Source of the DNA: Escherichia coli
Lineage (GTDB): Bacteria > Pseudomonadota > Gammaproteobacteria > Enterobacterales > Enterobacteriaceae
DNA: 64,000 nucleotides
NCBI RefSeq assembly: GCF_002854065.1
Contig: NZ_CP024147.1
Strand: one strand, 5' to 3'
Shown here piece after piece: positions 4,685-63,968 of this stretch. The notes under the pieces were generated by a model, which searched no databases, was not told the DNA's origin, and worked only from the letters and a program-made list of their open reading frames with translations. The position numbers and the translations under genes are program-made. Every line of letters begins with the position of its first letter. The stretch's first letter is position 1.

Positions 4685-4699
4685 GTTGGAGTCATTACC

Positions 4700-4786: not shown

Positions 4787-4810
4787 AAGCCGCCTGATGG
4801 CGGTTTTTTA
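4787..4810 (+). terminator. Rho-independent terminator-like hairpin
   Basis: GCCGCC-TGAT-GGCGGT stem-loop followed by TTTTTT. Confidence 0.5.
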
Positions 4811-4823
4811 TTGGAGACAAGAA

Positions 4824-5168: not shown

Positions 5169-5245
5169 CGCCTCACACTCGATGAGGCCTGTACATATCT
5201 GATAGATCCGCTATATGGCGGTTTATTTTTGCCTGGAGAATTAAG

Positions 5246-5437
5246 ATGACCGATACCAGCCTGATTCCTGAGAAAGAAGTGATGAACAAGCTCGGTGTTT
5301 CATCACGTCAGACAATCTGGAACTATACCAAACGGCACGGATTTCCGAAGCCAGTCAGAACCCACCCCAAATCATACCTTCGTGAAGCTGTTGAAGGGTG
5401 GATTCTTAACGGTGGCGTTAATCAGAAATGCTCCTGA
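5246..5437 (+). CDS. alpA: AlpA-family phage transcriptional regulator / excisionase-like
   Basis: 63-aa HTH protein resembling AlpA (MTDTSLIPEKEVMNKLGVSSRQTIWNYTKRHGFPKP...); adjacent to integrase. Confidence 0.7.
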   Translation: MTDTSLIPEKEVMNKLGVSSRQTIWNYTKRHGFPKPVRTHPKSYLREAVEGWILNGGVNQKCS

Positions 5438-6596
5438 TGTGCCAGAACAATTTATCAGCGTGAAGCTCATACGCTTTGCGCTGAGCCTCTATCCAGTCGT
5501 GTTTATTGTATACGGACATTATCCCGCCAAGTTCATGACCGAGCATTCGCTCAGTAACATGAGGCTCGACATTCATCTCGGACAGACGTGTAACAAGCGT
5601 TCTTCTGAAATCGTGTGTTCGCCAGTAACCTAGATCCATCCCTCCCCTTATTCTATTTACGAATCGGTTGGCTGCAGCGATGCTGATCGGTTTGTTTATG
5701 TCTTCTCCAGGGAAAAGAACATCATTGTACGTTGTCATGGCCTTTTCGAGGAAAGGCTTAATTTGTTCGAAGATTGGACGGCGGATAACATTACCCATCT
5801 TGCTATGCTCTTTCGGTACGGTCCATACGTTTTCCAGCAGGTCAAATTCTGTCTTTTTTGCCAGCCTAAGCTCTGAGAGCCTCGCCCCCCACAGCATAAG
5901 CATCTGATGAAGTAGCTTATTTGACGTAGACGCACGGCTTCTTTCAATAGCAAGCCAAATCTTAGCCAGTTCGTGATACGACAGTACCCGATCCCCTACC
6001 TCAGCGCGGGAGCCGAAGTCCCTTGGTTGGATGCTCATAATTGCGCAACTATCTATCAACTGACGCCGCATGCACCAACTTATTGCTGATCTTAGTTGAC
6101 TTAGCACCTGCCTTGCTCGGCGTGGATTATCTCTTTCTTCTTCGGTAAGCAGGTCAACCCATTGCTTAACCGTGATAGAAGATGCCGGACGATTAGGAAA
6201 GGCGTCATGCATGCGCTTCATAACCGTTGATCGGTAAAGTGCCTGGGTCTTTTCTCTGAGAGTTGTAGAGACGTAGTTGTCGAACCAGTAGTCGAGACAC
6301 TGGGCGACCGTCATGGAGTTCTCCACCTTCTCTTCAAAATAAGTGCGTGGATCCGTTCCTGAGAAATAGAGCTTTCGCAAGTCAGCAGTGATCTGTCTGG
6401 CATCCTTCAAAGACAGGGATGGGTATCGACCAAGCCCAAGTCGATTAGGCTTGCCATGCCAGCGATAGCGGTACTGGAACTGGATGACCCCCTTCGGTGA
6501 AATTCGTACGCTGAGGCCATCGGCATCAGCCACTTCTTGTGGGCCCGAATATGGTTTACCATAAATACTACGCAGTTTTGTGTCGCTTATAGCCAT
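5418..6596 (-). CDS. int: Tyrosine-type site-specific integrase (P4/CP4-57-like)
   Basis: 392 aa; C-terminal catalytic region with R...HDFRRT...LGH...Y motifs. Confidence 0.9.
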   Translation of the reverse strand: MAISDTKLRSIYGKPYSGPQEVADADGLSVRISPKGVIQFQYRYRWHGKPNRLGLGRYPSLSLKDARQITADLRKLYFSGTDPRTYFEEKVENSMTVAQCLDYWFDNYVSTTLREKTQALYRSTVMKRMHDAFPNRPASSITVKQWVDLLTEEERDNPRRARQVLSQLRSAISWCMRRQLIDSCAIMSIQPRDFGSRAEVGDRVLSYHELAKIWLAIERSRASTSNKLLHQMLMLWGARLSELRLAKKTEFDLLENVWTVPKEHSKMGNVIRRPIFEQIKPFLEKAMTTYNDVLFPGEDINKPISIAAANRFVNRIRGGMDLGYWRTHDFRRTLVTRLSEMNVEPHVTERMLGHELGGIMSVYNKHDWIEAQRKAYELHADKLFWHIRSISD

Positions 6597-9505: not shown

Positions 9506-9560
9506 GGTGATGCTGCCAACTTACTGATTTAGTGTATGATGGTGTTTTTGAGGTGCTCCA

Positions 9561-9836
9561 GTGGCTTCTGTTTCTATCAGCTGTCCCTCCTGTTCAGCTA
9601 CTGACGGGGTGGTGCGTAACGGCAAAAGCACCGCCGGACATCAGCGCTATCTCTGCTCTCACTGCCGTAAAACATGGCAACTGCAGTTCACTTACACCGC
9701 TTCTCAACCCGGTACGCACCAGAAAATCATTGATATGGCCATGAATGGCGTTGGATGCCGGGCAACTGCCCGCATTATGGGCGTTGGCCTCAACACGATT
9801 TTACGTCACTTAAAAAACTCAGGCCGCAGTCGGTAA
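9561..9836 (+). CDS. insA: IS1 InsA
   Basis: 91 aa. Confidence 0.9.
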
Positions 9837-10258
9837 CCTCGCGCATACAGCCGGGCAGTGACGTCATCGTCTGCGCGGAAATGGACGAACAGTGGGGCTA
9901 TGTCGGGGCTAAATCGCGCCAGCGCTGGCTGTTTTACGCGTATGACAGTCTCCGGAAGACGGTTGTTGCGCACGTATTCGGTGAACGCACTATGGCGACG
10001 CTGGGGCGTCTTATGAGCCTGCTGTCACCCTTTGACGTGGTGATATGGATGACGGATGGCTGGCCGCTGTATGAATCCCGCCTGAAGGGAAAGCTGCACG
10101 TAATCAGCAAGCGATATACGCAGCGAATTGAGCGGCATAACCTGAATCTGAGGCAGCACCTGGCACGGCTGGGACGGAAGTCGCTGTCGTTCTCAAAATC
10201 GGTGGAGCTGCATGACAAAGTCATCGGGCATTATCTGAACATAAAACACTATCAATAA
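9755..10258 (+). CDS. insB: IS1 InsB frame
   Basis: 167 aa; A6C motif intact. Confidence 0.85.
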
Positions 10259-10273
10259 GTTGGAGTCATTACC

Positions 10274-10325
10274 CGAATCCCAGTAAAGCCCCGCAAATCA
10301 TGCCACTTATTATCATGTGCAACAT
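10274..10325 (-). pseudogene. yeeE: yeeE 5' fragment (first 17 codons, MLHMIISGMICGALLGF) including the right-hand TSD copy
   Basis: Reverse-strand translation matches the YeeE N-terminus; rejoining across the IS1 (minus one TSD copy) restores ...ALLGFVMQRGRF. Confidence 0.8.
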
Positions 10326-11874: not shown

Positions 11875-12221
11875 GGTCAGTCTCCATTACGGCGATGGCC
11901 GGCGCAAAATTGAAAAATTGCCCCATTTTTTTTCTGTTTCCTCAGCGACAACGACTGTCGTTTTTTAAGTAAGTATCTATCCGGTACGAAGCCCGGCCTC
12001 TTTAATTTGATGGTTGTTTTGATGTAAAAAAAATAACCGACGCGGCAAGCACGTCGGTTAATCTCAATTTTTTACATTCGACATATTTTGCCCCAAACGG
12101 TAGCAAAAAGACAAGCCGCTGAGAGCATAATCAGCACGCCTTCTCGTCTAAACGACTGATAATTCAGCAACTCCCGAATCATAAATCTCATCAATAGCAC
12201 TATTTGCTAAAACAGCGGCGA

Positions 12222-13221: not shown

Positions 13222-13272
13222 ATGAGCCGCGTTCAATTTAAACACCACCATCATCACCATCATCCTGACTAG
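13222..13272 (+). CDS. hisL: his operon leader peptide ([16 protein letters not shown])
   Basis: 16-codon ORF with seven consecutive His codons. Confidence 0.9.
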
Positions 13273-13333
13273 TCTTTCAGGCGATGTGTGCTGGGAGACA
13301 TTCAGATCTTCCAGTGGTGCATGAACGCAAGAG

Positions 13334-13370
13334 AGCCCCCGGAAGATCATCTTCCGGGGGCTTTTTTTTG
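13334..13370 (+). terminator. his attenuator terminator
   Basis: AGCCCCCGGAAGATCATCTTCCGGGGGCT hairpin followed by TTTTTTTT, between hisL and hisG. Confidence 0.9.
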
Positions 13371-19813: not shown

Positions 19814-19820
<7 letters not shown>

Positions 19821-20413
19821 CTGAACAACTGGACTGGCAAAAAACCGACGGACTGATGCCCGCCATTATCCAACACGCGGTATCCGGTGAAGTGCTGATG
19901 CTGGGCTATATGAACGAGGAAGCGCTGGCCAAAACGCAGGAAACGGGCAAAGTGACCTTTTTCTCGCGCACCAAACAGCGCCTGTGGACCAAGGGTGAAA
20001 CCTCCGGCCACTTCCTCAATGTGGTAAGCATCGCGCCCGACTGCGACAATGACACTCTGCTGGTGCTGGTTAACCCGATTGGCCCGACCTGCCATAAAGG
20101 CACCTCAAGCTGCTTCGGCGACACCAGCCACCAGTGGCTGTTCCTGTATCAGCTTGAGCAGCTGCTGGCCGAGCGTAAAAACGCTGACCCGGCAAGTTCA
20201 TACACCGCTAAGCTGTACGCCAGCGGCACCAAGCGTATCGCGCAGAAAGTGGGTGAAGAAGGCGTGGAAACCGCGCTGGCCGCCACGGTGCACGATAAGT
20301 TTGAGCTGAAGAATGAGGCGTCGGATTTGATGTATCACCTGCTGGTGCTATTGCAGGATCAGGAGCTGGATTTGACGGCGGTGATTGAGAATTTGCGGGA
20401 ACGGCATAAGTAA
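19814..20413 (+). CDS. hisI: Bifunctional phosphoribosyl-AMP cyclohydrolase / phosphoribosyl-ATP pyrophosphatase
   Basis: 199 aa; last gene of the operon. Confidence 0.95.
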
Positions 20414-20425
20414 CGGATAAATTTG

Positions 20426-20455
20426 AGCCCGGCGATAACACCGGGCTTTATTATT
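20426..20455 (+). terminator. his operon terminator (hairpin shared with convergent ugd)
   Basis: AGCCCGG-CGATAACA-CCGGGCT followed by TTTATTATT. Confidence 0.6.
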
Positions 20456-20469
20456 GCTGCACGAACCTG

Positions 20470-21636
20470 TCAATCATTACCAAACAGATCGCGGGTATAC
20501 ACCTTCTCTTTCACATCAGCCAATTCTTCCGCCATTCGGTTAGAAATGATGACATCCGCTTCTTGCTTAAATGCATCCAAATCGCGTACAACGCGGGAAT
20601 TAAAGAATTCATCTTCTTTCATCGCAGGTTCATACACAATCACTGGAATGCCTTTCGCTTTGATTCGTATCATAATCCCTTGAATCGAAGATGCGCGGAA
20701 ATTGTCGGATCCTGACTTCATGACGAGGCGATATACCCCAACCACTTTCGGCTTGCGGGCCAGGATGGAATCGGCAATAAAATCCTTGCGGGTACGGTTA
20801 GCGTCAACAATCGCACCGACGATGTTATTTGGCACAGACGCATAATTTGCCAGCAGTTGTTTAGTATCTTTCGGGAGGCAATATCCACCATAACCAAAAG
20901 ATGGATTGTTATAGTGATTACCGATGCGCGGGTCCAGGCACACGCCTTCAATAATCTGGCGGGAGTTCAGGCCCAGGCTTTCCGCATAGCTATCCAGCTC
21001 GTTGAAATAAGCCACGCGCATCGCGAGGTAGGTGTTCGCGAATAGCTTGATAGCTTCGGCTTCGGTCGAGTCGGTGAACAGCGTCGGGATATCCTTCTTC
21101 ACTGCCCCTTCCTGCAGCAGCGCGGCAAAACGCTCGGCACGCTCAGAACGTTCGCCGATAACGATACGCGACGGATGCAGGTTGTCGTACAGCGCACGGC
21201 CTTCGCGCAGGAATTCCGGCGAGAAGAAAATATTGTCGATACCCAGTTTTTCTTTAATCGAATTGGTAAAGCCTACCGGAATGGTAGATTTGATAACCAT
21301 CACCGCGTTGGGGTTGATTTCAACGACGTCACGGATAACAGACTCAACGCTGGACGTATTGAAATAGTTCGTTTTGGGGTCGTAATCGGTCGGAGTGGCG
21401 ATGATCACATAGTCTGCATCGCGATAAGCATCGCGCTTATCAGTGGTCGCACGGAAATTCAGCGGTTTGGTCGCCAGATACTCTTCGATCTCTTTGTCGA
21501 CGATCGGCGACTGTTTCTGATTCAGCATGTCGACCTTGGCCTGAACGATATCCAGGGCCACCACTTCGTGGTGCTGGGCGATCAGAATGCCGTTCGACAG
21601 GCCGACGTAACCTGTTCCTGAAATAGTTATCTTCAT
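20470..21636 (-). CDS. ugd: UDP-glucose 6-dehydrogenase
   Basis: 388 aa [16 protein letters not shown]...[10 protein letters not shown]. Confidence 0.95.
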
Positions 21637-23417: not shown

Positions 23418-24563
23418 TTAGAGCACTTCTTGCATTGTGAGTTTATTATAGATTTGAACGGTTTTTCGTATGACAACGGTAGATGAATACTTTTCCTCTA
23501 CTCGCTTTCTGGCATTCTGCCCCATCTTAGTGCGCTCAAGAGGATCGCTAATAAGGATACCAAGCTTCTGAGAAAATAGGTTCACATTTCCTTTAGGCAC
23601 AAGGAAACCGTTATAACCGTCAAGTATTAAACTCCCACAACCACCAGTGTCAAAACTTATAACAGGACGACCGATTGCACCGGCTTCTAAAAGAATTCGA
23701 GGAATACCTTCAGAGTAAACAGATGGCAAAGCGACTATATCCACACTTTCAATTAATTCCTTGATATCGCTACGCTTGCCCAGCCAAATGATATCACCGG
23801 AGTTATGCCACTCTTCTATCTGAGTTATACTTATAGCGTCGCGATCATTGTCAACAAGAATGCCCGCAACTAATATCTCAAATTCGATGCCTTGTAATTT
23901 TAAAATTCTACTAGCATCAATTAACGTGCGTAGCCCTTTACTCCAAAGCATGCGACTTGCAAAAAAAACTTTAACCTTGGTATTATTAGGTGGTGTACTA
24001 TAACAAAAATAGTCTATATTAATACCTGCGCCATCAATAACTTCAGTTTTATTTTTTGGAATATCTAATAGTTCAATTATTTTTTGCTGATCTTTTTTAT
24101 GTTCAAAGAGGATACAACAATCAATATTTAAGAAAAATCTTCTATACATATTAGCAATTAAGAACTTAACCATTTGGTAAATGACCTTATTGCTTTCAAA
24201 AACTCTACCTAACCCAACAAAACTATAGACCATTTTTTTGTTTCGGATTCTGGCCCATAAACAACTAATCACACCAGGTTTAATCGTGACGCTATGCACA
24301 ATATCAGGATTAATTTTATTCAATGTTCTAAATGAGCGAGTTATATCGCAAAAGAAAACAACAGGATTGATATTTTGCTCTTTTATTTTACTATCAATAC
24401 ACTTAAATCCTAAACTAGTAAAGCGATCCAGAATAGACTTGTCAGAATAATTCGCAAAAATATAGACATCATATCCTGCTTCCAGAACTGATAAGGCACG
24501 ATCTAACCAATGTAATTCGAAATACCAAGCGGAGTTCACAAAATAACATATCTTTATTTTCAT
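23418..24563 (-). CDS. Glycosyltransferase, family 1 (GT4-like)
   Basis: 381 aa with C-terminal GT1 motifs (SEGIPRILLEAGAIGRPVIS); AT-rich. Confidence 0.75.
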   Translation of the reverse strand: MKIKICYFVNSAWYFELHWLDRALSVLEAGYDVYIFANYSDKSILDRFTSLGFKCIDSKIKEQNINPVVFFCDITRSFRTLNKINPDIVHSVTIKPGVISCLWARIRNKKMVYSFVGLGRVFESNKVIYQMVKFLIANMYRRFFLNIDCCILFEHKKDQQKIIELLDIPKNKTEVIDGAGINIDYFCYSTPPNNTKVKVFFASRMLWSKGLRTLIDASRILKLQGIEFEILVAGILVDNDRDAISITQIEEWHNSGDIIWLGKRSDIKELIESVDIVALPSVYSEGIPRILLEAGAIGRPVISFDTGGCGSLILDGYNGFLVPKGNVNLFSQKLGILISDPLERTKMGQNARKRVEEKYSSTVVIRKTVQIYNKLTMQEVL

Positions 24564-24718
24564 ATTTAAAACTCACATCTCCTTCCTTAAGCTATTATCC
24601 TGTTAAAATTTAAAACCTCAGCACGTCATCTTATACTTCGAAGAAAATATCAGTTTTAAATAAAGCAAAACAAATCATCCCTGATTTGTTTGTGAATCAA
24701 AATAAAGACTATTACAAA

Positions 24719-26878
24719 TCACCAACACACAAGCATGTATTCATACACCAGATCACGCTCAGGCTGGAGGTGAACAAACTTGAATTGATAACCCATATTG
24801 AGATTTTCAACAAATTTCTTACATTCAAAAATTTGCTCTGGCTGCAACCACAAGTGATAAACAGAAATCAGCAACACGGGCTTGTGTTTTTTGATTGTCT
24901 CGATTGCACCATTAAGGGCATTAATCTCATAGCCTTCAATATCGAATTTAATCAAACCAACACGATCTTCAAACGTCAGACTATCAATAGTGACCGATTG
25001 AACTTTAATGTCAGACTGCTCGTCTTCAACAACACATGAGCCTACTCCATCATCCCCAACTTTCATCATCGAAAGTTCGCCAGATACATTGCTGACAGCA
25101 ACATTTAAGGGTTTAATAGTATCATTTAAATATTGATGATTACGCTCAAGATTCCGAACCATACAGTTATAATTATCAGCTACAGGTTCTAAGGCAAGTA
25201 CTTCTTTAAATCCAAAGCTAGCGAACATGATAGCTGTATCACCAACCCAAGCCCCACAATCTATAGCAACAGAGCCTTTGAATTCTTCAGTGAATCGGCC
25301 TGGAAGATACTTCAAGCCAGCTTTGAAATAGTTGGTTGCTAGAGTAACCGGTAATTCAGATAGATCAAGATGCTGAATTAATTCTTTTTCGTGACGTAAG
25401 ATTGAATCAATATTTGACAATATAACTCTATCTTCATCCGTAAATAATGTTAAAGATAAAGGTAATTCCAACTCAATGCCTTGATGTTCAAAGTATGGCA
25501 GTAATTCATAAAAACCAAATAATTTCCTCTCATTTTGAAGGCTAAATTCATCAAGGCCGCGTTTGAATTCTTCACGTAGTTTAGAGATCCGAGAGGAATT
25601 TACCTTCATGTAATAATAAAACTGGTTAGTAGGCGCTACTTTTATTAGTACAGAACCATTTTTATTCTGTCCTGAAATGACATCGACTTTATCAGTAAGT
25701 TCTTTCGACATCTTCAAAAATGAAGAATCTAACTCCTCCCGAAAATGTTTGGAAAGTAAAGATGAGGAGGAATCCATTTTTGATGAAACAGCATTAATAA
25801 TTGGTTCAATTATTAATTTGTTAGTAATAAAACGTAGTTTGGAAACGACTTTCTTTTTAATCCTGTTTCTTGTCTGAACTGTTTTTATAATCCTGTTACT
25901 CATCAACTCATTATAAATTGGAAGAACATGATTATAATAATAGTCATTTGTATCGGAGGAAAATGAAACATTAGAAGTTACTGGCTGGAAACCTTCTTCT
26001 TTAGCCTGTTCAAAAACAGCAATAGCAGCTTCCTGATATGACTTCAATCCATCGCCTCTCAAACGAGAAGAATGGAAAACTAAATCAAAAAGATGGTGAA
26101 AATAAAAATGATTCAGGTATTTTTGAAACGTTCCAACACTAAGAAGGTGTTTTTTTATAATATCATAATTATTAAAAGATATTAATGCCTTGTCAGCACT
26201 AGCACTGGATGAGCCCACGTTCATGACCCTGTAGTTATAAACAGGCACATTCAAAAGAGTTATCTTTTCTACAGAGGCATAGGTGATGAATTTAAAGGGC
26301 ATATCCTGATATGAAGCCCCAGGACTTTCATAGAAGCGAATATGATTTTCTTCAAGAAAATCTCTTCTATACAAGCCAGTCCAGATTGATGATTCAAGCA
26401 AGAAAAGCTCAACTGAATTTTCTGGTACAATTTCTGCCAAGTTATCATTATCAAATGTACATAAATGCGCAAGGGACTGAGTATTGATTACAACTTCATT
26501 ACTTATTCTATTGAAACTTGCTTTAATGACCGGATTCGGGATTTTATTATAAGCGTCTATTAGACGCTCAAACATATCAAGCTGAACCCAATCGTCTGTT
26601 TCGATGATAGAAATAAAATCGCCGCTTGCAACATCTAGCCCAGAGTTGATTGCAGCTCCGTAACCTGCGTTTTTTTTATGGATAGCAATAATTCTTGTAT
26701 CGCTCGAAGCGTATCGATCAATAATCTGAGGGCAAGCATCAGGGCTACCGTCATTGACTATTATTATTTCCAGATTCTTATATGTTTGAGACAGAACACT
26801 GTCGAGACATTGCTCTAAATAAACTTCGCCGCCGTATACAGGTAAAATAACGGAAATTTTAAAGATATCATCACCCAT
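24719..26878 (-). CDS. Multidomain protein: N-terminal GT2 glycosyltransferase, central linker, C-terminal FkbM-family methyltransferase
   Basis: N-terminus ISVILPVYGGEVYLEQCLDSVLSQTY...ETDDW (GT2, DxD); C-terminus AIDCGAWVGDTAIMFASFG...FDIEGYE (FkbM-like SAM methyltransferase); ~180-aa region between them of unknown fold. Confidence 0.7.
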   Translation of the reverse strand: MGDDIFKISVILPVYGGEVYLEQCLDSVLSQTYKNLEIIIVNDGSPDACPQIIDRYASSDTRIIAIHKKNAGYGAAINSGLDVASGDFISIIETDDWVQLDMFERLIDAYNKIPNPVIKASFNRISNEVVINTQSLAHLCTFDNDNLAEIVPENSVELFLLESSIWTGLYRRDFLEENHIRFYESPGASYQDMPFKFITYASVEKITLLNVPVYNYRVMNVGSSSASADKALISFNNYDIIKKHLLSVGTFQKYLNHFYFHHLFDLVFHSSRLRGDGLKSYQEAAIAVFEQAKEEGFQPVTSNVSFSSDTNDYYYNHVLPIYNELMSNRIIKTVQTRNRIKKKVVSKLRFITNKLIIEPIINAVSSKMDSSSSLLSKHFREELDSSFLKMSKELTDKVDVISGQNKNGSVLIKVAPTNQFYYYMKVNSSRISKLREEFKRGLDEFSLQNERKLFGFYELLPYFEHQGIELELPLSLTLFTDEDRVILSNIDSILRHEKELIQHLDLSELPVTLATNYFKAGLKYLPGRFTEEFKGSVAIDCGAWVGDTAIMFASFGFKEVLALEPVADNYNCMVRNLERNHQYLNDTIKPLNVAVSNVSGELSMMKVGDDGVGSCVVEDEQSDIKVQSVTIDSLTFEDRVGLIKFDIEGYEINALNGAIETIKKHKPVLLISVYHLWLQPEQIFECKKFVENLNMGYQFKFVHLQPERDLVYEYMLVCW

Positions 26879-28199
26879 TGTCTTTCAAAACCTTTCGCAA
26901 AGTGGATTGGAAATTATAGCGCTGATTAAAGTTGGCAAAGACATTTCGACTATGAGTAGCCATGTTAATGAGCTCATCTTTTTTAAGCGATGTAATGAAC
27001 TCAGCACACTTTTGCGCAGATTCGATCTGATGGTACGCTTCTGTCGACTCAATCCCTTCCATAGCAGCTTTAGTTGAAACTAATGGAACACCATAAGAAA
27101 GCGCCTCCAGACATTTAACTTTCAACCCTGAAAGTAATTCATCTGGATTGATAATTACATCGCAGGAATGGTAGAACTTATCAAGGCTCTCACAAAAACC
27201 GAGGATATTAACAAAACCAGGGTACTGTCTACCTTCAAGAGCTCCGCAAATTGTTCCTGAAATATCGAGTCTTACATTATGATCAAGTTTACTTAAGCTA
27301 TCGATAAAATTGTTGATCGCAACGACATTTGGATAGTGCCCAGAGGCCATAAAGCCAACAACGATCTTTTTATTGGATGTTGGGACATAATCAATAAAGT
27401 TTACGTCCAGAATAGGTGGCTGAACAATGACTTGGGAACTAACATTCTCCCTGAAGTAACGGCCTTCTGCTTCTTGAATAGCAAATATATAATTAGCTCT
27501 TGATAACCCAATGGTTTCTTCTTTCTTCGATGTAGAGAAATAGAATTTATCTTGTGAAATACCAATTTTTGCCATTCGAGTGTTCCTCTTAGCAAAAACA
27601 TCGTGAGTATCGATCACTGAGACTGTATTAGGTTTAAGGTATAAACACAATTTTGACAGGAAGACATAATTAACAATTGCAATCTGATAATTATTCATCG
27701 CAGAAAGTGCAGCAACAAATTGACATATTTCATCATCAAGCCAATCGTCAATTTTATTTCCATCAGGAATTATTTGCTGATTGACATCGTGTCTTAGAGT
27801 GCCGAACTTTCCGTTCCGACATTTTATATTATAAGTATAATCCCAATCAACACTATTTGAATCCCAAGGTGAATTATTGAAAACAATAGCGTGAATTGTG
27901 AATCCTAGGGATTTTAATGTCGCAATTTTTGTATCAATATTTTTCCCGACGGCATCATTTCCATAAAAAGGCATAATGACTAGCGCATTTTTATCTGAAC
28001 TTGACTTTAAAATTTTTGGAAAAACAGTAAATTCATTTGCATTTTGTTCAGCATTAACGTTCAACGCTTTAATTAATAACCGCCTTGGGTAATGAGCGTT
28101 AACCATGAGGGCAAATAATTTCCAAAGCTTACGTGCGAGCCTGGTATACCTGAATTTAACAAAAGCTTTCTTCAAAAATCTGGTGATTGTGTTTTTCAT
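26871..28199 (-). CDS. Glycosyltransferase, family 1, with N-terminal domain of unknown function
   Basis: 442 aa; C-terminal GT1 motif (KCLEALSYGVPLVSTK); N-terminal ~200 aa unassigned. Confidence 0.7.
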   Translation of the reverse strand: MKNTITRFLKKAFVKFRYTRLARKLWKLFALMVNAHYPRRLLIKALNVNAEQNANEFTVFPKILKSSSDKNALVIMPFYGNDAVGKNIDTKIATLKSLGFTIHAIVFNNSPWDSNSVDWDYTYNIKCRNGKFGTLRHDVNQQIIPDGNKIDDWLDDEICQFVAALSAMNNYQIAIVNYVFLSKLCLYLKPNTVSVIDTHDVFAKRNTRMAKIGISQDKFYFSTSKKEETIGLSRANYIFAIQEAEGRYFRENVSSQVIVQPPILDVNFIDYVPTSNKKIVVGFMASGHYPNVVAINNFIDSLSKLDHNVRLDISGTICGALEGRQYPGFVNILGFCESLDKFYHSCDVIINPDELLSGLKVKCLEALSYGVPLVSTKAAMEGIESTEAYHQIESAQKCAEFITSLKKDELINMATHSRNVFANFNQRYNFQSTLRKVLKDNG

Positions 28200-28726
28200 A
28201 ATGGAATAGATAACAGATCAGAATAAACTGGATATGTGGCATAACCTACAGCAGGAATCTGATGGCCCGTCTCAACTAAAAAAACTCGGCCCAACCCAAA
28301 CTTTAATCCGGCTTCTACATCACCCAGTTTATCACCAACAATAAAAGATTGTTTTAAGTCAATGGAATAATCACGAGCTGCAGACTCGAACATACCCGTA
28401 TTAGGTTTGCGGCACGAACAATCACATCGATATTCAGGGACAATTCCATCTGGATGATGAGGGCAATAATAGATATCTAATATATCGATACCCTGTGATT
28501 TCAAGATACCCCTATACCACTTTGTCAATTTATCATAATCAGATAAGGTGTAATATCCTTTGGCAATTCCGGCCTGATTTGTCACAATGATTATTTTATA
28601 ACCATGAGCAATAAATCTTTTCATGCCACTGATACAGTTTTTGGTAAATTCAAAATCTTCAATTTTATATAGATAATTGACTTCCTTATTAATTACACCA
28701 TCGCGATCAAGAAATGCCACTTTCAT
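28196..28726 (-). CDS. gmhB: D-glycero-D-manno-heptose 1,7-bisphosphate phosphatase (HAD family)
   Basis: 176 aa, FLDRDGVIN HAD motif I; within heptose gene block. Confidence 0.8.
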   Translation of the reverse strand: MKVAFLDRDGVINKEVNYLYKIEDFEFTKNCISGMKRFIAHGYKIIIVTNQAGIAKGYYTLSDYDKLTKWYRGILKSQGIDILDIYYCPHHPDGIVPEYRCDCSCRKPNTGMFESAARDYSIDLKQSFIVGDKLGDVEAGLKFGLGRVFLVETGHQIPAVGYATYPVYSDLLSIPL

Positions 28727-29400
28727 TTAAATCTCTCACATGCAATGAAATAATCTTCAGGAATTCCTATATCGATAAAATATGAGGAATTAACGTAGGC
28801 CTTAAACTCTCCTTTGAATTTAGGCAAAAAATCAGATTCAAAAGAAAATTTATTCCCAGCAAACTTGCTCATAATTTCCTTTGAGACAATATAAATTCCA
28901 CTGTTAATAATTCCAGGGCCAGTTCTTCCCTTTTCTACCATAGCATTAACATTAGATTTCTCATCTAAATCTAAACTACCATAACGAGCGACATCATTAA
29001 CTTCGACACCAGATATTAGAAGATCTGTTCCCTTCGAAGCTTCTATGAAGTCACTATAATTAAGCTCGCAGTACGTATCACCATTAAGAACAATGAATTT
29101 ATCCGTTCTGACTTTAGAACTGGCATATTTAATTGCGCCACCAGTTCCTAGAGGTTCTTTTTCGACAACAAAGTCAACCTCACAACCAACAGGGTTGTCA
29201 TGGACAACCCTGTCGATGATATAGTCAGCTTTGTAGGATAATGATAGTATAATTCTGGTAGCTCCTTGTTTTTCAAGATACGTCATTAGACGATAAAGAA
29301 ATGGTTGCCCTGAAATATCTACCATTGGCTTAGGAAGCTCGCCACTAACACTCTTCAGACGAGTACCTAGCCCTCCTGCCAAAATAACTACATCATACAT
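28723..29400 (-). CDS. hddC: D-glycero-alpha-D-manno-heptose 1-phosphate guanylyltransferase
   Basis: 225 aa nucleotidyltransferase (VILAGGLGTRL); context with hddA/gmhA/gmhB. Confidence 0.7.
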   Translation of the reverse strand: MYDVVILAGGLGTRLKSVSGELPKPMVDISGQPFLYRLMTYLEKQGATRIILSLSYKADYIIDRVVHDNPVGCEVDFVVEKEPLGTGGAIKYASSKVRTDKFIVLNGDTYCELNYSDFIEASKGTDLLISGVEVNDVARYGSLDLDEKSNVNAMVEKGRTGPGIINSGIYIVSKEIMSKFAGNKFSFESDFLPKFKGEFKAYVNSSYFIDIGIPEDYFIACERFK

Positions 29401-29402
29401 AA

Positions 29403-29993
29403 TTATTTATCTTCTGGTTTGAAAATGGCACGTTCAACAATTGCGCAGATCATATGACCAATGCAAATATGGCATTCTTGAATGTATGGTGTAATTTTAG
29501 AAGGTACATTAATTGAATAGTCTACCAAATCTTTAAGCTTACCTGCTTCACCACATAGCGCCACGCTTGTCACACCCAGTTCTTTTGCCAGTTCCATCGC
29601 GTTAATGATATTAACGGAGTTACCTGAAGTACTGATGCCAATGAAAACATCACCTGGCTTGCTTTGAGCTTGCAGTTGTCTTGCAAATAGTTTATCAAAT
29701 CCGTAGTCATTGCCGATAGCCGTTAGCATCGAGGTATCAGTGGTGATAGCAATGGCTGGTAATCCTGGTCTATCGAAAAAGAAGCGACTGACGAACTCAG
29801 CCGCGATATGCTGAGAATCAGCAGCACTACCACCATTCCCGGCAAGAATTACTTTATTCCCGTTTTTATATGCATTGATAATCAAATCTGCAACTAAAGA
29901 GATTTGGCTCAATACACTGTCAGATTCCTGAAGCAATTTTTTTACTGCAATGCTGTCATCAAGATATGCTTTAATATAATTTACATTGTCCAT
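29403..29993 (-). CDS. gmhA: Sedoheptulose 7-phosphate isomerase (SIS domain)
   Basis: 196 aa; GNGGSAADSQH motif. Confidence 0.8.
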   Translation of the reverse strand: MDNVNYIKAYLDDSIAVKKLLQESDSVLSQISLVADLIINAYKNGNKVILAGNGGSAADSQHIAAEFVSRFFFDRPGLPAIAITTDTSMLTAIGNDYGFDKLFARQLQAQSKPGDVFIGISTSGNSVNIINAMELAKELGVTSVALCGEAGKLKDLVDYSINVPSKITPYIQECHICIGHMICAIVERAIFKPEDK

Positions 29994-31009
29994 GAATATG
30001 CTCCATCCTCGACAAATTGGAATTTATAGACTTCGCCACCAAACTCTTGTAGTTTACGTTCGATCAACTGTTTTCGCTCCGGTTCAACGAATAGCATCAT
30101 AAAACCACCGCCACCGGCACCTGAAACTTTCATTGACTTAACACCGATACTAAACACTTCCTTCTCGATTTTCTCAATCATCGGATTACTGATTGACGAT
30201 GAGGTGTTTTTCTTACTTTCCCATGCATCCAGGAATGTCGCGGCCATAGCATCGATATCAGATTTGAGTAAGTGTTCTTTAATCTGATATGCTGATTCTT
30301 TAACTTTATGCATAGCCATCAGTTTAGACTCTTTGTCACTCTCTAAAGATCTAATCTGGTCATCAATAATTTTCGCAGAGTCTCTCGAAGCCCCTGTAAA
30401 ATAAAGAATCAGGGATGACTCTAACTCATTTATTATATATCTACGAATTCTAAGTGGGTTAACAATAACGCGATTACCTTCATAAAACTCCATGAAATTA
30501 AAACCACCAAATGTTGCAGCATACTGATCTTGTTTACCACCTGATAAACCACAGTCTACTCGCTCAATCTTGAATGCTAACTGGGCCAGATCATATTCTC
30601 CAAGAGGCAGAGAATACATTTGCCGTAGTCCTTCAAGCATTGAAACAACAACCGTCGATGATGACCCCAAACCGCTACCTGCAGGAGCGTCAGAATGAGT
30701 AATGATACGAACCGGTTTTAATTCGCCGTCAAAATAATCATTCATGACTCGAAGGTAAACTGCTCGATGCAGTTTTAGCTTCCCTTCAATCGTTACACCA
30801 TTGGTAAGATCAATCTCTTCTCTGATATTAAGGTCGGTTGCCTCAAAAATAACTTTACTACCTTCAAGCTCATCATCAATGTAAGCATACGCATACATAT
30901 TGATGGTCGCATTCAGTACACACCCACCGAATGTATCGCTATAAGGTGAAACATCTGTCCCACCTCCTGCAATGCCTAAACGTAGAGGCGCTTTGCTTCT
31001 AACTTTCAT
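29981..31009 (-). CDS. hddA: D-glycero-alpha-D-manno-heptose 7-phosphate kinase (GHMP kinase)
   Basis: 342 aa GHMP kinase (PAGSGLGSSS); context. Confidence 0.7.
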   Translation of the reverse strand: MKVRSKAPLRLGIAGGGTDVSPYSDTFGGCVLNATINMYAYAYIDDELEGSKVIFEATDLNIREEIDLTNGVTIEGKLKLHRAVYLRVMNDYFDGELKPVRIITHSDAPAGSGLGSSSTVVVSMLEGLRQMYSLPLGEYDLAQLAFKIERVDCGLSGGKQDQYAATFGGFNFMEFYEGNRVIVNPLRIRRYIINELESSLILYFTGASRDSAKIIDDQIRSLESDKESKLMAMHKVKESAYQIKEHLLKSDIDAMAATFLDAWESKKNTSSSISNPMIEKIEKEVFSIGVKSMKVSGAGGGGFMMLFVEPERKQLIERKLQEFGGEVYKFQFVEDGAYSWTM

Positions 31010-31025
31010 AACAAAAGAATCCCTA

Positions 31026-32054
31026 TTAACGATTCAGAGGAATGCGGCCAGATGCGATTTCTTTTCTCCAGTGCTGGAGTAAATCACGAAACATATCTGT
31101 CGCTTTTATTTCTGGTTTCCAGTCAATGAAATTCCTGATTTTAGTATTATCAAACATTTGGTAATCGGCATCAATTGGACGCAGGCGATCTGTATCTGTA
31201 ACAACTTCAATATCGTCACGAGTGCTAAAGCTCAGTAAAAGGTCTATAACCTCAGGAAGTTTGAATGCTTCTTCACCTGCAATATTAAATGCTTCGCCGA
31301 AAGGAACATTCCCTTTTTCGCTCTCCAGAGCTAATAAATAGTATGCACGCACAGCGTCTCTAGCATCTTGGAAAGTACGTACGCTTGCTAAATTGCCAAC
31401 TTTTAATTTTGGTTCCTGATGTCCAGCTTCGATCAAGGCAATCTGCTTGGCAACAGTACTTTCGAAAAATACATCACTACGGCGTGGGCCTGTATGTGTG
31501 CCCATGCGAGTGATAAATGTACGCAACCCATATGCCTCGCCATAAAAACGCCCTAAATAATCGGTACCAATTTTACTAATGCTGTAAGGGCTAGCGCCAT
31601 GGAACTGCGTATCTTCGTTTAAAGCTTCACCTACTTTTGCTCTACCATAAACTTCACTAGAAGAACAAACATGAACAACAGGATCATAACCATCTTGTTG
31701 TTTTAGTTTTTTAATGCATTCCAACAGATTGGCAGTACCAATAATATTGGTCTGCAAGGTCTCGATCGGAATATCGAATGAGGTGCGGGGAAATGACTGC
31801 GCAGCAAGGTGGAAAATGAATTTTGGACGCTTCGCTTCAATTAAGTTATACATGGAAGTATAGTCATTAAGGTCTGCGTATTGGATGAATACTCTATCCT
31901 TTTTATTAATCCGGTCTGTTAAATGATAGATATTATCCATTGGCTCTTGCCAACGCATCATTCCAATTACTGTGTCGGTTGTATTCTCTAAAATATAATC
32001 TGCTAATTGAGAACCAACTTGTCCAGTGAATCCTGTAATTAATACATTATTCAT
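31026..32054 (-). CDS. dmhA: GDP-sugar 4,6-dehydratase (Gmd family); predicted GDP-D-glycero-D-manno-heptose 4,6-dehydratase
   Basis: 342 aa SDR-extended dehydratase adjacent to GDP-heptose genes; not in the colanic acid gmd/fcl block. Confidence 0.6.
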   Translation of the reverse strand: MNNVLITGFTGQVGSQLADYILENTTDTVIGMMRWQEPMDNIYHLTDRINKKDRVFIQYADLNDYTSMYNLIEAKRPKFIFHLAAQSFPRTSFDIPIETLQTNIIGTANLLECIKKLKQQDGYDPVVHVCSSSEVYGRAKVGEALNEDTQFHGASPYSISKIGTDYLGRFYGEAYGLRTFITRMGTHTGPRRSDVFFESTVAKQIALIEAGHQEPKLKVGNLASVRTFQDARDAVRAYYLLALESEKGNVPFGEAFNIAGEEAFKLPEVIDLLLSFSTRDDIEVVTDTDRLRPIDADYQMFDNTKIRNFIDWKPEIKATDMFRDLLQHWRKEIASGRIPLNR

Positions 32055-32060
32055 ATATGC

Positions 32061-32894
32061 TTACCCCTTAATAACGTTTAAATATGATTCACATGATCTA
32101 TCAAGAATAGATTCGAGAAAACGACTTTTGGTATTAATTTTTTTTGGCCTACCCAGCCAAAATGATTCTGGCGCATCTGTAAATTGATACTGCAGTTCTG
32201 GAAATTTTTCCTGCGCTAGCGCCAAAACAATCTGTTGTCGACTGACAAGATCCGGGCCGGAGAAATTAACGATGCGAGTATCAATTTGGCTCCAATTCAA
32301 TATAATATTTTTGATGCCTAACAATACATCATTAATTGAAACAACACTGCGCTCAAAACCATCAAATACATCTAATAATTTACTATTCAAACTGTGCTCT
32401 TTTACCATTTCAGAGAATTTATCACCTTTCCCTAAAATGTACGAAAATCGTATTACGAAGAACCCAGGGTTATTTGAAAAATGTTCTTCAACTTCACATT
32501 TCATTTGACCATATTTGCCAAATGGTTTTCGTTCTGACATTTCAGTGCACACATCAGATGTACCACCAAATACAACATCACTTGATGAGAAAATCACTCG
32601 CGCATTTTTTTTAAGTAATTCAGATATCAAAGTAATTGTATTTTTCACATTAATCTTATGCGCAACGTCATAGTTTTTCTCACATTGATCAGGCGCAGAG
32701 ACTGCTGAAAGAAAAATGATGGTGTCATCATTGTTTACTTGATCCAGTAAATCATTAAATTCACCAGTTTCCAGATCAAAATGAATATCTGAATTTTTTC
32801 TTCCAACTGTTACCAGCGAAAAAGCATCACTAAGAAATGATTTAAGATGATTACCAACGTAACCAGTAGACCCTAGAATGAATACTTTTCTCAT
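32061..32894 (-). CDS. dmhB: NAD(P)-dependent sugar-nucleotide reductase (RmlD-like); predicted GDP-4-keto-6-deoxyheptose reductase
   Basis: 277 aa SDR with GSTGYVG Rossmann motif; adjacent to dmhA. Confidence 0.55.
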   Translation of the reverse strand: MRKVFILGSTGYVGNHLKSFLSDAFSLVTVGRKNSDIHFDLETGEFNDLLDQVNNDDTIIFLSAVSAPDQCEKNYDVAHKINVKNTITLISELLKKNARVIFSSSDVVFGGTSDVCTEMSERKPFGKYGQMKCEVEEHFSNNPGFFVIRFSYILGKGDKFSEMVKEHSLNSKLLDVFDGFERSVVSINDVLLGIKNIILNWSQIDTRIVNFSGPDLVSRQQIVLALAQEKFPELQYQFTDAPESFWLGRPKKINTKSRFLESILDRSCESYLNVIKG

Positions 32895-32967
32895 ACTCAG
32901 TTACCAAATTATACGAAGTGAAGATGTATGCACATAAAATGCTATGAAGACAATTTTATCTGCCATT

Positions 32968-33942
32968 TTAATAACCGACGGATAGCTCAAATACACCGTC
33001 ATGATCTTTGGTATCTTTAAATTTAATTTTATAAATTTTATTATGATTAAGGCGAAGCCAGAAACTGTTGTCTTTAATGGATACTCTTTCCCAATCACTT
33101 GTTGTGGTTTTAAAACTGACGGAGACCACATCAACATCAATATTAAAATTAACATCTGAATATTCAGCTGTTGGATTTATATCTCCAACCTTAAAAGCTA
33201 CTGTTTCAGTATTTTTGTATTCCAGGAGCTTAAGCCCATAACTTGTCAGTTTCATAATCAAATTATATTTATTGTATACACTGTCACTTGGACCTTCATC
33301 CAGAACAACACCGTTTTCAATGCAAACAAGTCGATCGGAAAGGAGCTTCAACTGGTGTTCGTCATGCGAAACGATGACGACTGTTGTGTCTGACTTTATT
33401 TTTTCACGAATGCTTTTTTGTGCTTTCTCTGCAAAAGTCACGTCACCGACACCCAGTACTTCATCAATTAACAGAACTTCAGGGGTAGTATACATGGCAA
33501 TTGAGAAACCCAAACGTGCTAGCATACCTGATGAATAATTTTTAATTGGTTTTTCGAAGAACTCATTAAGCTCTGAATATACTTTGATGTCTTCAATAAT
33601 TGATTTGATATAAGACAATCTATGACCGAGGACCATTCCACTAAAGATAGTATTCTGACGACCTGATAAGTTGGGATCAAATCCTGCCTGAAGGGCCATT
33701 AGAGAAATACTGTTTGAATGAATAGTTATTTGCCCAGAATCAGGCTTAATAATACCCGCCAGAACTCGTAGTAATGTAGATTTCCCTGCTCCATTACGCC
33801 CAATTATTCCAAGAGTTTCGCCACGATAAACATCGAATGTAATGTTTGTCAAAGCTTCATATTCATCGTAAGTAAAGAGTGTTTTCTTTTCTCTATAAAC
33901 TAAACCTACGTTTTTTAGCTCAATAATCTTTTCATTCTTCAT
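32968..33942 (-). CDS. wzt: O-antigen ABC transporter ATP-binding protein with C-terminal extension
   Basis: Walker A GRNGAGKST, ABC signature SSGM, Walker B LLIDE; ~85 aa beyond the NBD. Confidence 0.85.
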   Translation of the reverse strand: MKNEKIIELKNVGLVYREKKTLFTYDEYEALTNITFDVYRGETLGIIGRNGAGKSTLLRVLAGIIKPDSGQITIHSNSISLMALQAGFDPNLSGRQNTIFSGMVLGHRLSYIKSIIEDIKVYSELNEFFEKPIKNYSSGMLARLGFSIAMYTTPEVLLIDEVLGVGDVTFAEKAQKSIREKIKSDTTVVIVSHDEHQLKLLSDRLVCIENGVVLDEGPSDSVYNKYNLIMKLTSYGLKLLEYKNTETVAFKVGDINPTAEYSDVNFNIDVDVVSVSFKTTTSDWERVSIKDNSFWLRLNHNKIYKIKFKDTKDHDGVFELSVGY

Positions 33943-34712
33943 TTCTGAACAACTCGTGGGAAGATGAATTCTAATCTCTTAAATGCATACAACGAAATAG
34001 AAATCATAATTAAAGAAAGCAGAACTACATATGCGAGCAGCTTAATATTTGGTGCATTATGATACATCAATACATCACGGTACGAACTAAGAATTACTGC
34101 CATCGGGTTAATGAAGAAAATCTTCGATTCCATCGCCGGTATACTTTTGTAATTGAAAAATATACCTGAGCAAAACATCATAATTTGAAGGCCGGTTTCA
34201 ATTACAAATGAAAAATCTCTGACAAAGGGAACAATGATTGACACTATCAAAGAAAATGCAACTATTAATAATAGCTGAACAAAAATGACTGGAATAATCC
34301 AAAGCAAGCCAAGAGTATAATCATAGCCGTACAAGACTAAAAAAATAAATAGCAGAATAAATACAAGTATCTGCTTTAACGCATCCTGCAATATAAATGT
34401 CAAAGGGAAGAATATCTTAGAAATATGTACCTGATTCATTAGGTACTTTCCTTGAATGATACTCCCTTGCGCATGACTAACGCTGCGACCAAACCATATC
34501 CAGGGGATCAGTCCAGTTAACAGGAATGGGACGTAATCATGACCACCTTGCTTAAGAAGATATGCAAAAACCAAATAGTAAATTGCCATTTGAAGGACTG
34601 GTTCGATAATCCACCAAGCATAACTTAAATAGTTTATTGATGCTTCTGATTTTAGATTAAGCTTTGCTTTAACCCAAACCAATTCAAGGGTTTTTAACGA
34701 CATGATACTCAT
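33939..34712 (-). CDS. wzm: O-antigen ABC transporter permease
   Basis: 257-aa ABC-2 type membrane protein; coupled to wzt. Confidence 0.85.
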   Translation of the reverse strand: MSIMSLKTLELVWVKAKLNLKSEASINYLSYAWWIIEPVLQMAIYYLVFAYLLKQGGHDYVPFLLTGLIPWIWFGRSVSHAQGSIIQGKYLMNQVHISKIFFPLTFILQDALKQILVFILLFIFLVLYGYDYTLGLLWIIPVIFVQLLLIVAFSLIVSIIVPFVRDFSFVIETGLQIMMFCSGIFFNYKSIPAMESKIFFINPMAVILSSYRDVLMYHNAPNIKLLAYVVLLSLIMISISLYAFKRLEFIFPRVVQK

Positions 34713-34713
34713 G

Positions 34714-37650
<2,937 letters not shown>

Positions 37651-37654
<4 letters not shown>

Positions 37655-38520
37655 TCACCTTTTGCACGTGCTATAATGTATTGACCATAATCATTTTTCT
37701 TCATAGGTAGTGCATTTTTTATTGCTTCTTCTTTGCTTAACCAACCATTTCTTAATGCAATCTCTTCAAGACATGCAACCTTGAGGCCCTGAACATTCTG
37801 GATGGTTTGCACGAAGGATGACGCTTCATGCAAACTTTCGTGGGTCCCTGTATCCAACCAAGCAAAACCACGCCCCAGTAGCTCTACGTTAAGAGTACCT
37901 TCTTTGAGATACATGTCATTAAGATCAGTAATCTCCAGCTCCCCTCTCACTGAAGGTTTAACTTTTTTAGCGAAATCGATAACGCGATTATCATAGAAGT
38001 AAAGTCCAGTGACTGCATAATTTGATTTTGGTTTTGACGGTTTTTCTTCAATAGATACAGCCCGCATCTCGCTATCAAATTCAACTACACCGAAGCGTTC
38101 AGGGTCTTTCACTTGATAACCAAATACTGTTGCACCGTATTCTCTTGCAACAGCATTCTGCAGGATTTTGATAAATGATTGGCCATAAAAAATATTATCA
38201 CCCAGCACCAAACAAACTTTATCGTTTCCTATAAATTTCTCACCAATGAGGAATGCCTGCGCTAATCCATCAGGGCTGGGTTGCACGGCATAATTAAGCC
38301 GAATACCAAAATTACTGCCATCACCGAGTAACCGCTGGAAACTCGCATTATCTTCTTCAGTGGTTATTATTAATATATCTTGAATACCCGCTAGCATAAG
38401 TGTGGAAAGCGGGTAATAAATCATTGGTTTATCATAGATTGGTAATAGTTGTTTTGATACACCACGAGTTATTGGATACAATCTAGTGCCAGAGCCGCCT
38501 GCTAAAATAATACCTTTCAT
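37651..38520 (-). CDS. rmlA: Glucose-1-phosphate thymidylyltransferase
   Basis: 289 aa [18 protein letters not shown]... Confidence 0.95.
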
Positions 38521-38532
38521 CTTTTATCCTTA

Positions 38533-39621
38533 CTACTCTACGAGCCCTAAGCGTTCACCAGCGTACGAACCATCCATCACACGCTGCCACCATTCTTTAT
38601 TATTTAAATACCAGTGAATGGTTTTAGTGATACCCGTTTCAAACGTTTCTTGCGGCACCCAACCTAAATCTTGTTTAATTTTACTGGCGTCAATGGCATA
38701 TCTAAGGTCATGCCCTGGACGATCGCTAACATACCGAATCAACTGTTCAAAATTTTCAATGCCATCTGGTTTATCTGCAATCAATTCATCGAGAATGCGA
38801 CAAATAGTTTTCACTACATCGATATTTTTACGTTCGTTATGACCACCAATATTATATGTTTCTCCCGGCACACCCTTTGTGACGACTTCATAAAGTGCCC
38901 GGGCATGATCTTCAACATATAACCAATCTCGAATTTGCTCACCGTTCCCATAAACAGGTAAAAGTTTACCCGCAATTGCATTCAGAATAATTAACGGAAT
39001 GAGTTTTTCAGGGAAATGGTACGGCCCATAATTATTAGAACAATTTGTCACTATGGTGGGTAATCCATATGTACGCCGCCATGCACGAACTAAGTGATCA
39101 CTGGATGCCTTAGAGGCGGAATATGGACTGCTAGGGGAATATGAAGTTTGTTCTGTAAACAATGGCAATATTGTATCTGACGATACTTCATCCGGATGAG
39201 GAAGGTCACCATAAACCTCATCCGTAGAAATATGGTGGAAGCGAAATGCACCTTTGCGATCTTCACTAAGTGCTAGCCAATACTTACGAGCTTCTTCTAG
39301 TAAGATATATGTTCCAACAATATTGGTTTCAATAAAGTCTGCAGGGCCTGTGATTGAACGATCAACGTGGCTTTCGGCTGCCAAATGCATTATTGCATCT
39401 GGTTGGTGATGTGCAAAAATATTGGCTATTGCAACGCTGTCGCAAATATCCGCATGCTCAAATTTATACCGCTCGTTATTCTCAATCTCTGTCAGAGATT
39501 CCAAATTACCTGCATAGGTAAGTTTATCAACATTGATGACAGAGTCTTGCGTATTATTAATTATATGACGAACAACTGCAGACCCAATAAAACCTGCACC
39601 ACCTGTAACCAGTATTTTCAC
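38533..39621 (-). CDS. rmlB: dTDP-glucose 4,6-dehydratase
   Basis: 362 aa [21 protein letters not shown]... Confidence 0.95.
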
Positions 39622-39715
39622 TTTGAATTTCCGCTATGACTTATAACTTATGGCTTGATAATATGAATGTTTGTTAAGAACAATCTGAATATTAAAAAAG
39701 ACACTTATGATTAGA

Positions 39716-39754
39716 CACGCTACCGCCCCTGGCTCTCCAGCTACCAGCGCACTG
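39716..39754 (-). promoter_or_regulatory. JUMPstart element with ops site (GGCGGTAGCGT at 39717-39727), RfaH-dependent antitermination
   Basis: Minus-strand sequence CAGTGCGCTGGTAGCTGGAGAGCCAGGGGCGGTAGCGTG matches the 39-bp JUMPstart consensus; ~95 bp upstream of rmlB. Confidence 0.75.
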
Positions 39755-40044
39755 CACCTTCAATGATAAAAATCATTTATGTCAAGGTAAAAATCCGCAA
39801 CGACTCCCACCTGCAAACCCAAAAAATTTCGGCAACTATTTTCGTCTTAAATGCATTTGAACTCAAGGAAAAATCTTATAAACGATATGCAACGCCTACA
39901 TTTCTAACCTATTGTTATTTTTTACTTTGTTTTATGAAATAAAAAGGCAGTGAAGCTAGTAGTAGGTTACCCTACATACTTATGCCCATCTGCCGTTCTA
40001 AAACGCCGTTCTTAAATTTGCTTTATCGTTTACTGAGAAACGAC

Positions 40045-49397: not shown

Positions 49398-49500
49398 GTT
49401 TTTACCTTTCTTCAGGCAACAGTTCGCCCTGACCGTTATGGCCATCAATTTTGGTGTCGTGATTTGCCGGATGCGCCGCGCTTATCCGGCCAGCCGGGCG

Positions 49501-63885: not shown

Positions 63886-63921
63886 CATGCTACTGCCCTT
63901 GGCTTTCAGCTACCAATTCAC
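63886..63921 (-). promoter_or_regulatory. Degenerate JUMPstart-like element upstream of wza (ops-like GGCAGTAGCAT)
   Basis: Minus-strand GTGAATTGGTAGCTGAAAGCCAAGGGCAGTAGCATG resembles the JUMPstart consensus with several mismatches, including two in ops. Confidence 0.4.
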
Positions 63922-63968
63922 CTAAAAATCATGTTGTTATAGGAAACCCACCCATTCATAAAAAGAAT

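Follow-up and report, generated by a model that had tools for sequence, protein, structure and literature searches.

The JUMPstart is the 39-bp element of Hobbs and Reeves, which is found upstream of O-antigen clusters and has been described since 1994, and the mechanism of JUMPstart/ops control has been solved at atomic detail. The wb* leader of O7 is reportedly the JUMPstart/ops leader treated by Marolda and Valvano in 1998. The ops sequence is a strong pause signal, and its central non-template bases are read by RfaH as a small hairpin from which T6 is flipped out (PMC5995543). Each ops substitution but G2C lowered the RfaH effect in a reporter assay, and G4C, G5A, A7T and G8C abolished RfaH recruitment in vitro (PMC5995543). 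The leaders of the waaQ (rfaQ), hlyCABD, kps and F tra operons contain an ops with the same 8-nt core GGCGGTAG and the TG pause dinucleotide after it. These operons are long and were in many cases acquired horizontally, and their operon and leader contexts differ from the one analyzed here. The waaQ and rfb operons need RfaH at GGCGGTAG (PMC8745692).

In Escherichia coli CFT073, the O-antigen (wzx) and wza-wcaM operons each have a single ops on the non-template strand of the leader, are AT-rich and H-NS-bound, and have their transcription start sites (TSSs) upstream of ops (Hustmyer et al., 2022, PMC9765446). An RfaH ChIP signal is found over the O-antigen operon, starting from the single leader ops, while sigma-70 ChIP peaks and predicted TSSs are located upstream of it. 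H-NS/StpA coats this operon, and in an rfaH deletion the occupancy by RNA polymerase collapses towards the operon end (PMC9765446). In the K-12 (O16) rfb leader, as in the locus analyzed here, the JUMPstart is located between galF and rmlB, contains the identical 12-nt ops, and is preceded by a homologous promoter (-35, 17 bp, -10) and a terminator-like hairpin after galF. Unlike K-12, the leader described below has insertions of ~20 nt flanking the JUMPstart, three unpaired or loop substitutions within it, and an intergenic remainder that is only 44% identical.

The JUMPstart/ops element upstream of rmlB

The 64,000-nt stretch of E. coli DNA analyzed here (contig NZ_CP024147.1; the window) was scanned against all Rfam families. 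The JUMPstart RNA model RF01707 (Weinberg et al., 2010, PMC2864571) matched positions 39716-39754 on the minus strand with 56.0 bits (E = 3.9e-10), compared with a gathering cut-off of 35 bits, and all model positions (1-38 of 38) were covered. The 39-nt element, which reads CAGTGCGCTGGTAGCTGGAGAGCCAGGGGCGGTAGCGTG in the 5' to 3' direction from 39754 to 39716, has one extra loop base relative to the model and forms its 5-bp stem (CUGGU/GCCAG). According to the Rfam consensus structure, the stem-loop spans 39729-39747 on the minus strand, with CTGGT at 39747-39743, a 9-nt loop and GCCAG at 39733-39729. The perfect 12-nt ops GGCGGTAGCGTG, the RfaH recruitment and pause signal of the non-template strand, is located at the 3' end of the element (39716-39727, minus strand) and, read from 39727 to 39716, agrees with the ops-regulon consensus GGCGGTAGnnTG on the minus (coding, non-template) strand. 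Within the 64 kb, the 11-mer GGCGGTAGCGT has a single exact match, at 39717-39727 on the minus strand; the remaining two matches contain one mismatch each and are both found within genes.

A sequence-only reading of this DNA had proposed a 39-bp JUMPstart with an exact ops motif on the coding strand, ~95 bp upstream of rmlB. The full-length Rfam match with exactly these ends and the intact 12-mer confirm this identification. The distance from ops to the GTG start codon of rmlB is 94 nt, and the strand, which the reading had not named, is the minus strand, the same as that of rmlB. The element thus immediately precedes a polysaccharide cluster and is on the same strand as its first gene. It is a canonical member of a well-known family. 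Because the mechanism is textbook knowledge, both the element and its mode of action are already known, and the significance of the element itself is small: it adds one further confirmed instance with a perfect ops.

The conservation of the element was assessed at several distances. Compared with K-12, 36/39 positions of the JUMPstart are identical (92%), and the three differences are all found at unpaired or loop positions, whereas identity over the remainder of the 423-bp intergenic region is 44%. This difference from the surroundings, together with the perfect 12-mer, argues for ongoing selection. In 2202 of the 5426 complete E. coli genomes only ~41-47 bp around the element are in common with the window, and the full intergenic region is common to only four of the 5426. 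Using the GalF protein of the window as the query and one genome per species, we obtained 80 Enterobacteriaceae loci. In 73 of these, the core GGCGGTAG was present at most 1.5 kb downstream of galF, usually 270-320 nt past the galF stop codon, and 60 of the 73 ops-bearing loci contained the exact 12-mer GGCGGTAGCGTG. In an alignment of 49 distinct JUMPstart sequences, 98.4% of the cells of the 5-bp stem were paired, while pairing dropped to 20-61% of cells in controls with slid partner columns. Two of the five stem pairs showed compensatory changes (C-G to U-A and U-A to A-U). In this alignment, the covariation lends modest but genuine support to the predicted JUMPstart stem.

The O52 operon and its control region

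Downstream of the element, 16 genes on the minus strand form an O52-type O-antigen operon (23418-39621), as judged from the open reading frames and from the annotation of a RefSeq locus that is 99.96% identical across 40.5 kb. From 39621 to 23418 the operon spans 16,204 bp, and its GC content is 0.365, compared with 0.57 in the his-ugd-gnd flank and 0.557 in the galF-wca flank, in good agreement with the AT-rich operon of ~16 kb that had been read from the sequence. The first gene, rmlB (38533-39621, minus strand), has a GTG start, encodes 362 aa and is annotated in the RefSeq locus as rfbB, dTDP-glucose 4,6-dehydratase. According to the same annotation, the operon contains rfbB/rmlB, rfbA/rmlA, fcf1, glf, a glycosyltransferase gene and 'O52 family' wzm and wzt, as well as a 6-deoxy-heptose pathway set including gmhA/gmhB-type genes, a GHMP kinase gene, two more glycosyltransferase genes and a gene for a 719-aa FkbM-type methyltransferase fusion. 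The published E. coli O52 cluster relies on the ABC-transporter pathway and synthesizes D-fucofuranose and 6-deoxy-D-manno-heptose (PMC7685785). The gene set between galF and gnd agrees with that study, since it comprises O52-type wzm/wzt, the dTDP-D-fucofuranose genes (fcf1 and a glf-like gene) and the GDP-6-deoxy-D-manno-heptose genes.

Further along the window, hisIE (19814-20413, plus strand) and ugd (20470-21636, minus strand) are only 56 bp apart (20414-20469), and the chain-length regulator gene wzzB, which occupies the hisIE-ugd position in K-12, is absent from the window. This absence fits an O antigen of the ABC-transporter type that does not need Wzz.

The gene junctions of the operon are mostly overlaps or gaps of a few bases, with two larger gaps of 73 bp (32895-32967) and 155 bp (24564-24718). 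Downstream of the latter is the last glycosyltransferase gene (23418-24563), equipped with a good AGGAG ribosome-binding site, and an internal promoter in the 155-bp gap is possible. Internal promoters in the two gaps could leave the last genes partly RfaH-independent. A scan across the operon returned 68 promoter-like sites compared with a shuffled expectation of 65 ± 7.7, that is, no excess, and the count of a terminator scan was likewise at the shuffled expectation. Therefore, no internal promoter or terminator signals can be claimed.

Upstream of the operon, galF ends at 40045. Just past its stop codon, a terminator-like hairpin with a U-tract is located at 39937-40000 on the minus strand, with a predicted RNA fold of -24.7 kcal/mol (z = -4.64; 0 of 200 shuffled sequences folded as well). 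Given this strong terminator-like hairpin, the operon should need its own promoter. The intergenic region was aligned between the window, K-12 and eight further E. coli loci that differ in O type. Conserved islands in this diverged alignment were few, mainly the GGCAG/CTGCC arms of the galF hairpin, the JUMPstart, an TTTTCCTTG block, and an A-AAT block located 17 bp downstream of the TTTTCCTTG block. The putative operon promoter is located at 39838-39866 on the minus strand and consists of the -35 hexamer TTGAGT (39866-39861), a 17-bp spacer and the -10 hexamer GAAAAT (39843-39838); its aligned counterpart at K-12 rfb is TTGTTT, 17 bp, GACAAT. Among the 73 ops-bearing species loci, a CCTTG-17 bp-NANAAT layout was found 100-143 nt upstream of ops in 31, with a spacer that varies in sequence and is constant in length at 17 bp. 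In these comparisons, the sole conserved sigma-70-type promoter candidate is the one upstream of ops at 39866-39838, homologous to the K-12 rfb promoter. An IS26 transposase gene replaces galF, ~260 bp upstream of the JUMPstart, in a group of E. coli genomes (for example, AHM9C61I, NZ_CP125883.1, positions 1-600 of the extracted locus). In this group the JUMPstart has the GGAGA loop variant, as in the window, and a CCTTG-17-GAGAAT promoter block is retained.

Transcription is predicted to begin near 39832, some 110 nt before ops; the leader would then be ~211 nt long, and ops would occupy approximately +106 to +117. In CFT073 the TSSs are experimentally mapped, whereas the O52 start is predicted from sequence. 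The O7 leader of Marolda and Valvano (1998) is said to be 173 nt long. In K-12, a point 173 nt upstream of rfbB is 6 nt past GACAAT, where a start site is expected; using this figure reported for O7, the K-12 leader would measure 173 nt compared with ~211 nt predicted for O52.

A promoter downstream of the element was named in the sequence-only reading as the finding that would speak against it. In the sequence, the candidate promoters are all located upstream, and a consensus scan of the coding strand between ops and rmlB returned no promoter-like site. A second, weaker promoter-like site (TTTACC-17-TATCAT, 9/12 consensus matches) was found at 39763-39791 on the minus strand, within a lineage-specific insertion just upstream of the JUMPstart that is absent in typical E. 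coli. Its status as a promoter is uncertain, and a start from it would fall on the first JUMPstart base. As both candidates are upstream, the promoter would precede ops either way. A perfect TTGACA at 39785-39780 was rejected as a -35 hexamer, since its spacer to TATCAT is only 11 nt. Likewise, the palindrome AATGAT-TTTT-ATCATT (39764-39779) was considered as a Fur box and dropped, because the spacing of the half-sites is 3 nt too long.

The part of the predicted leader between ops and rmlB (39622-39715, minus strand) has only a weak, Shine-Dalgarno-like GGA triplet before the GTG start codon of rmlB. Neither the predicted 211-nt leader (z = -0.15) nor the 111 nt around the JUMPstart (z = +0.18) folded better than shuffled sequence, and therefore only the 5-bp stem is claimed as structure. 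Compared with typical E. coli, the O52/Kluyvera leader carries the ~20-nt insertions on either side of the JUMPstart, and these are partly complementary. Together they form a 13-nt inverted repeat around the JUMPstart (39700-39712 and 39771-39783; 77% complementary), and the -35 motif TTTT(T/A)CCTTGA occurs twice as an 11-nt direct repeat, at 39782-39792 and 39863-39873, 81 nt apart. The repeats flanking the JUMPstart may be due to chance, as they give no energy signal (z = 0.18). A terminator-like clamp and the ends of a small mobile element were considered for them and rejected, since the arms are short and imperfect, an energy signal is lacking, and two-copy repeats of this size often arise by chance.

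Predicted control of the O52 operon by RfaH

Based on these results, the element very probably works as a JUMPstart/ops site within the 5' leader of the O52 operon. The features expected in cis are all present, namely a perfect ops on the right strand, a position in the predicted leader, an AT-rich operon of 16 kb, and a first gene with a GTG start and a weak ribosome-binding site. The regulator is near-universal in the species: rfaH was found in 5425 of the 5426 complete E. coli genomes with at least 90% identity, and the carriers of the O52 locus are E. coli outside the locus. We infer the recruitment of RfaH and its effect on the O52 operon from homologous operons. By this analogy, transcription of galF would be ended by the terminator, and the O52 operon would then be initiated at the sigma-70 promoter upstream of ops. 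RNA polymerase transcribing ops would pause at U11 and expose the non-template GGCGGTAGCGTG as a small hairpin on its surface, which would be bound by RfaH. The C-terminal domain of RfaH would then refold, and the protein would remain on the polymerase over the entire 16-kb operon. There, RfaH would suppress pausing, exclude NusG and so reduce Rho-dependent termination, help the polymerase to pass across AT-rich DNA coated with H-NS/StpA, and recruit ribosomes to genes whose ribosome-binding sites are weak. The expected outcome is that the distal genes of the operon are expressed.

The covarying stem (98.4% of cells paired, two of five pairs with compensatory changes) could also suggest that the conserved part acts mainly as a structure of the leader RNA, for instance a hairpin that binds a protein or a ligand, or one that gives rise to a small regulatory RNA like RirA, with ops as non-template DNA playing a secondary part. 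In line with such a role, the element is represented in Rfam as a stem-containing RNA (PMC2864571), and RirA, a small RNA from the waaQ 5' UTR, interacts with RfaH (PMC8745692). However, the invariant part is the unpaired ops, which on structural and genetic grounds acts as non-template DNA (PMC5995543). Moreover, single-stranded DNA in the transcription bubble could form the stem just as well, and folding of the leader is at chance level. We consider an RNA structure in place of ops unlikely; it would at most constitute an added layer and not a replacement for the ops model.

The element could also be a conserved relic, with transcription driven from promoters located after ops or within the operon, and with RfaH having only a small effect in this strain. 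Many promoter-like hexamer pairs do occur in the AT-rich operon, and the gaps of 73 and 155 bp offer room for internal promoters. Their number, however, is that expected from shuffled sequence (68 compared with 65 ± 7.7), and the interval between ops and rmlB is free of promoter-like sites. In addition, the perfect 12-mer and the 92% identity within a region of 44% identity argue for ongoing selection, and homologous operons are RfaH-dependent. A relic is accordingly very improbable, and a functional ops acting through RfaH is the reading that we prefer for the O52 operon.

The Kluyvera-like segment and the JUMPstart of wza

From ~5.8 kb (position 5768) to its end at 64000, the window shares only 68-86% identity with E. 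coli K-12. The divergent genes include sbcB, plaP, yeeZ, the his operon, ugd, gnd, the O52 cluster, galF and the colanic acid cluster up to wza. Strain 100416 contains the DNA of the window at 99.96% identity and is 98-99% identical to K-12 outside the segment; a mislabelling of the carrier genomes as E. coli was thus considered and rejected. In strain 100416 the identity to K-12 breaks inside mdtA, near record position 1,825,900, and again near 1,893,500, where the sequence is K-12-like from dacD after sbcB. These breaks delimit a divergent segment of ~67 kb (mdtA/yegD-wza-wca-galF-O52-gnd-ugd-his-sbcB) that is 66-86% identical to K-12. Positions 1-5768 hold prophage or integrase remnants that adjoin sbcB, where the divergent segment has its left edge. 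Two IS1 copies were found in the window, at 3931-4701 and 9506-10277, and a comparison with strain 100416 shows that the latter disrupts the tsuA (yeeE) region.

Among the species representatives, the best GalF match was that of Kluyvera genomosp. 3 YDC799 (CP022114.1), followed by other Kluyvera species. YDC799 is 98.5% identical to the window over the 8.86 kb compared, which cover wcaL/M, galF, the intergenic region with the JUMPstart, rmlB, rmlA, fcf1 and glf. The JUMPstart of YDC799 has one G fewer before ops and scores 48.6 bits. Other public assemblies are 98.4-98.9% identical to the window across tsuA-his and have different O-antigen loci, and such varied O loci on a near-identical background are the pattern expected of a native host species. 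From these identities, the ~67-kb segment looks like an inter-genus chromosomal replacement that brought the O52 locus. The promoter, the leader and the JUMPstart were probably imported together with this segment and would then be non-native, with the O52 antigen of E. coli expressed from a Kluyvera control region. Exchange of such loci between genera is documented in general (PMC7305143), and a search of the searchable library for literature linking Kluyvera with O52 found none.

This Kluyvera-like replacement is of more interest than the element itself, as it bears on the movement of O-antigen types between genera. If it is true, the near-invariant ops and promoter hexamers would allow the RfaH of a recipient to express O-antigen replacements from another genus at once. 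The comparison also provides a natural footprint: between two genera with non-coding DNA at 44% identity, the promoter hexamers, the galF terminator arms and the JUMPstart alone survive, which points out the functional elements of the control region without experimental work.

A second, weaker JUMPstart is located upstream of wza, the colanic acid operon, at 63886-63923 on the minus strand. Its Rfam score of 41.4 bits is below the 56.0 bits of the first copy and above the cut-off of 35. The sequence-only reading had described this element as much more degenerate, which agrees with the lower score, and had placed it at 63886-63921; its end is in fact at 63923, two bases further. The wza operon of CFT073 also carries an ops (PMC9765446); set beside the CFT073 operons, the wza ops of the window (63886-63897, minus strand), which reads GGCAGTAGCATG, carries G4A and G10A. 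A typical E. coli wza JUMPstart contains the exact ops GGCGGTAGCGTG and scores 57.3 bits, whereas in the lineage of the window the wza ops is GGCGGTAGCATG, the first stem pair is a compensated U-A and the 5' end has diverged. The G-to-A change at position 4, resulting in GGCAGTAGCATG, was found in the window, in the CUWW06 assembly, which is 100% identical to the window over the wza region, and in UGBN01000001.1. Seven of eight relatives at 99.9% identity, including strain 100416, have kept the G (GGCGGTAGCATG). Judged from these relatives, part of the weakness of the wza element is a strain-specific G4-to-A change in ops. Since G4C abolishes RfaH recruitment in vitro, G4A may weaken the RfaH control of the colanic acid genes, and it represents a natural allele for ops position 4 in vivo.

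Further Rfam families were matched in the window. The algC RNA motif (RF02929) was found at 49402-49451 on the minus strand with 55.8 bits (cut-off 33.8), in the gap between cpsB and cpsG and directly upstream of the phosphomannomutase gene cpsG. The small RNA STnc240 (12025-12101, minus strand, 60 bits) and the histidine operon leader (13248-13369, plus strand, 123 bits) are usual for this chromosomal neighborhood.
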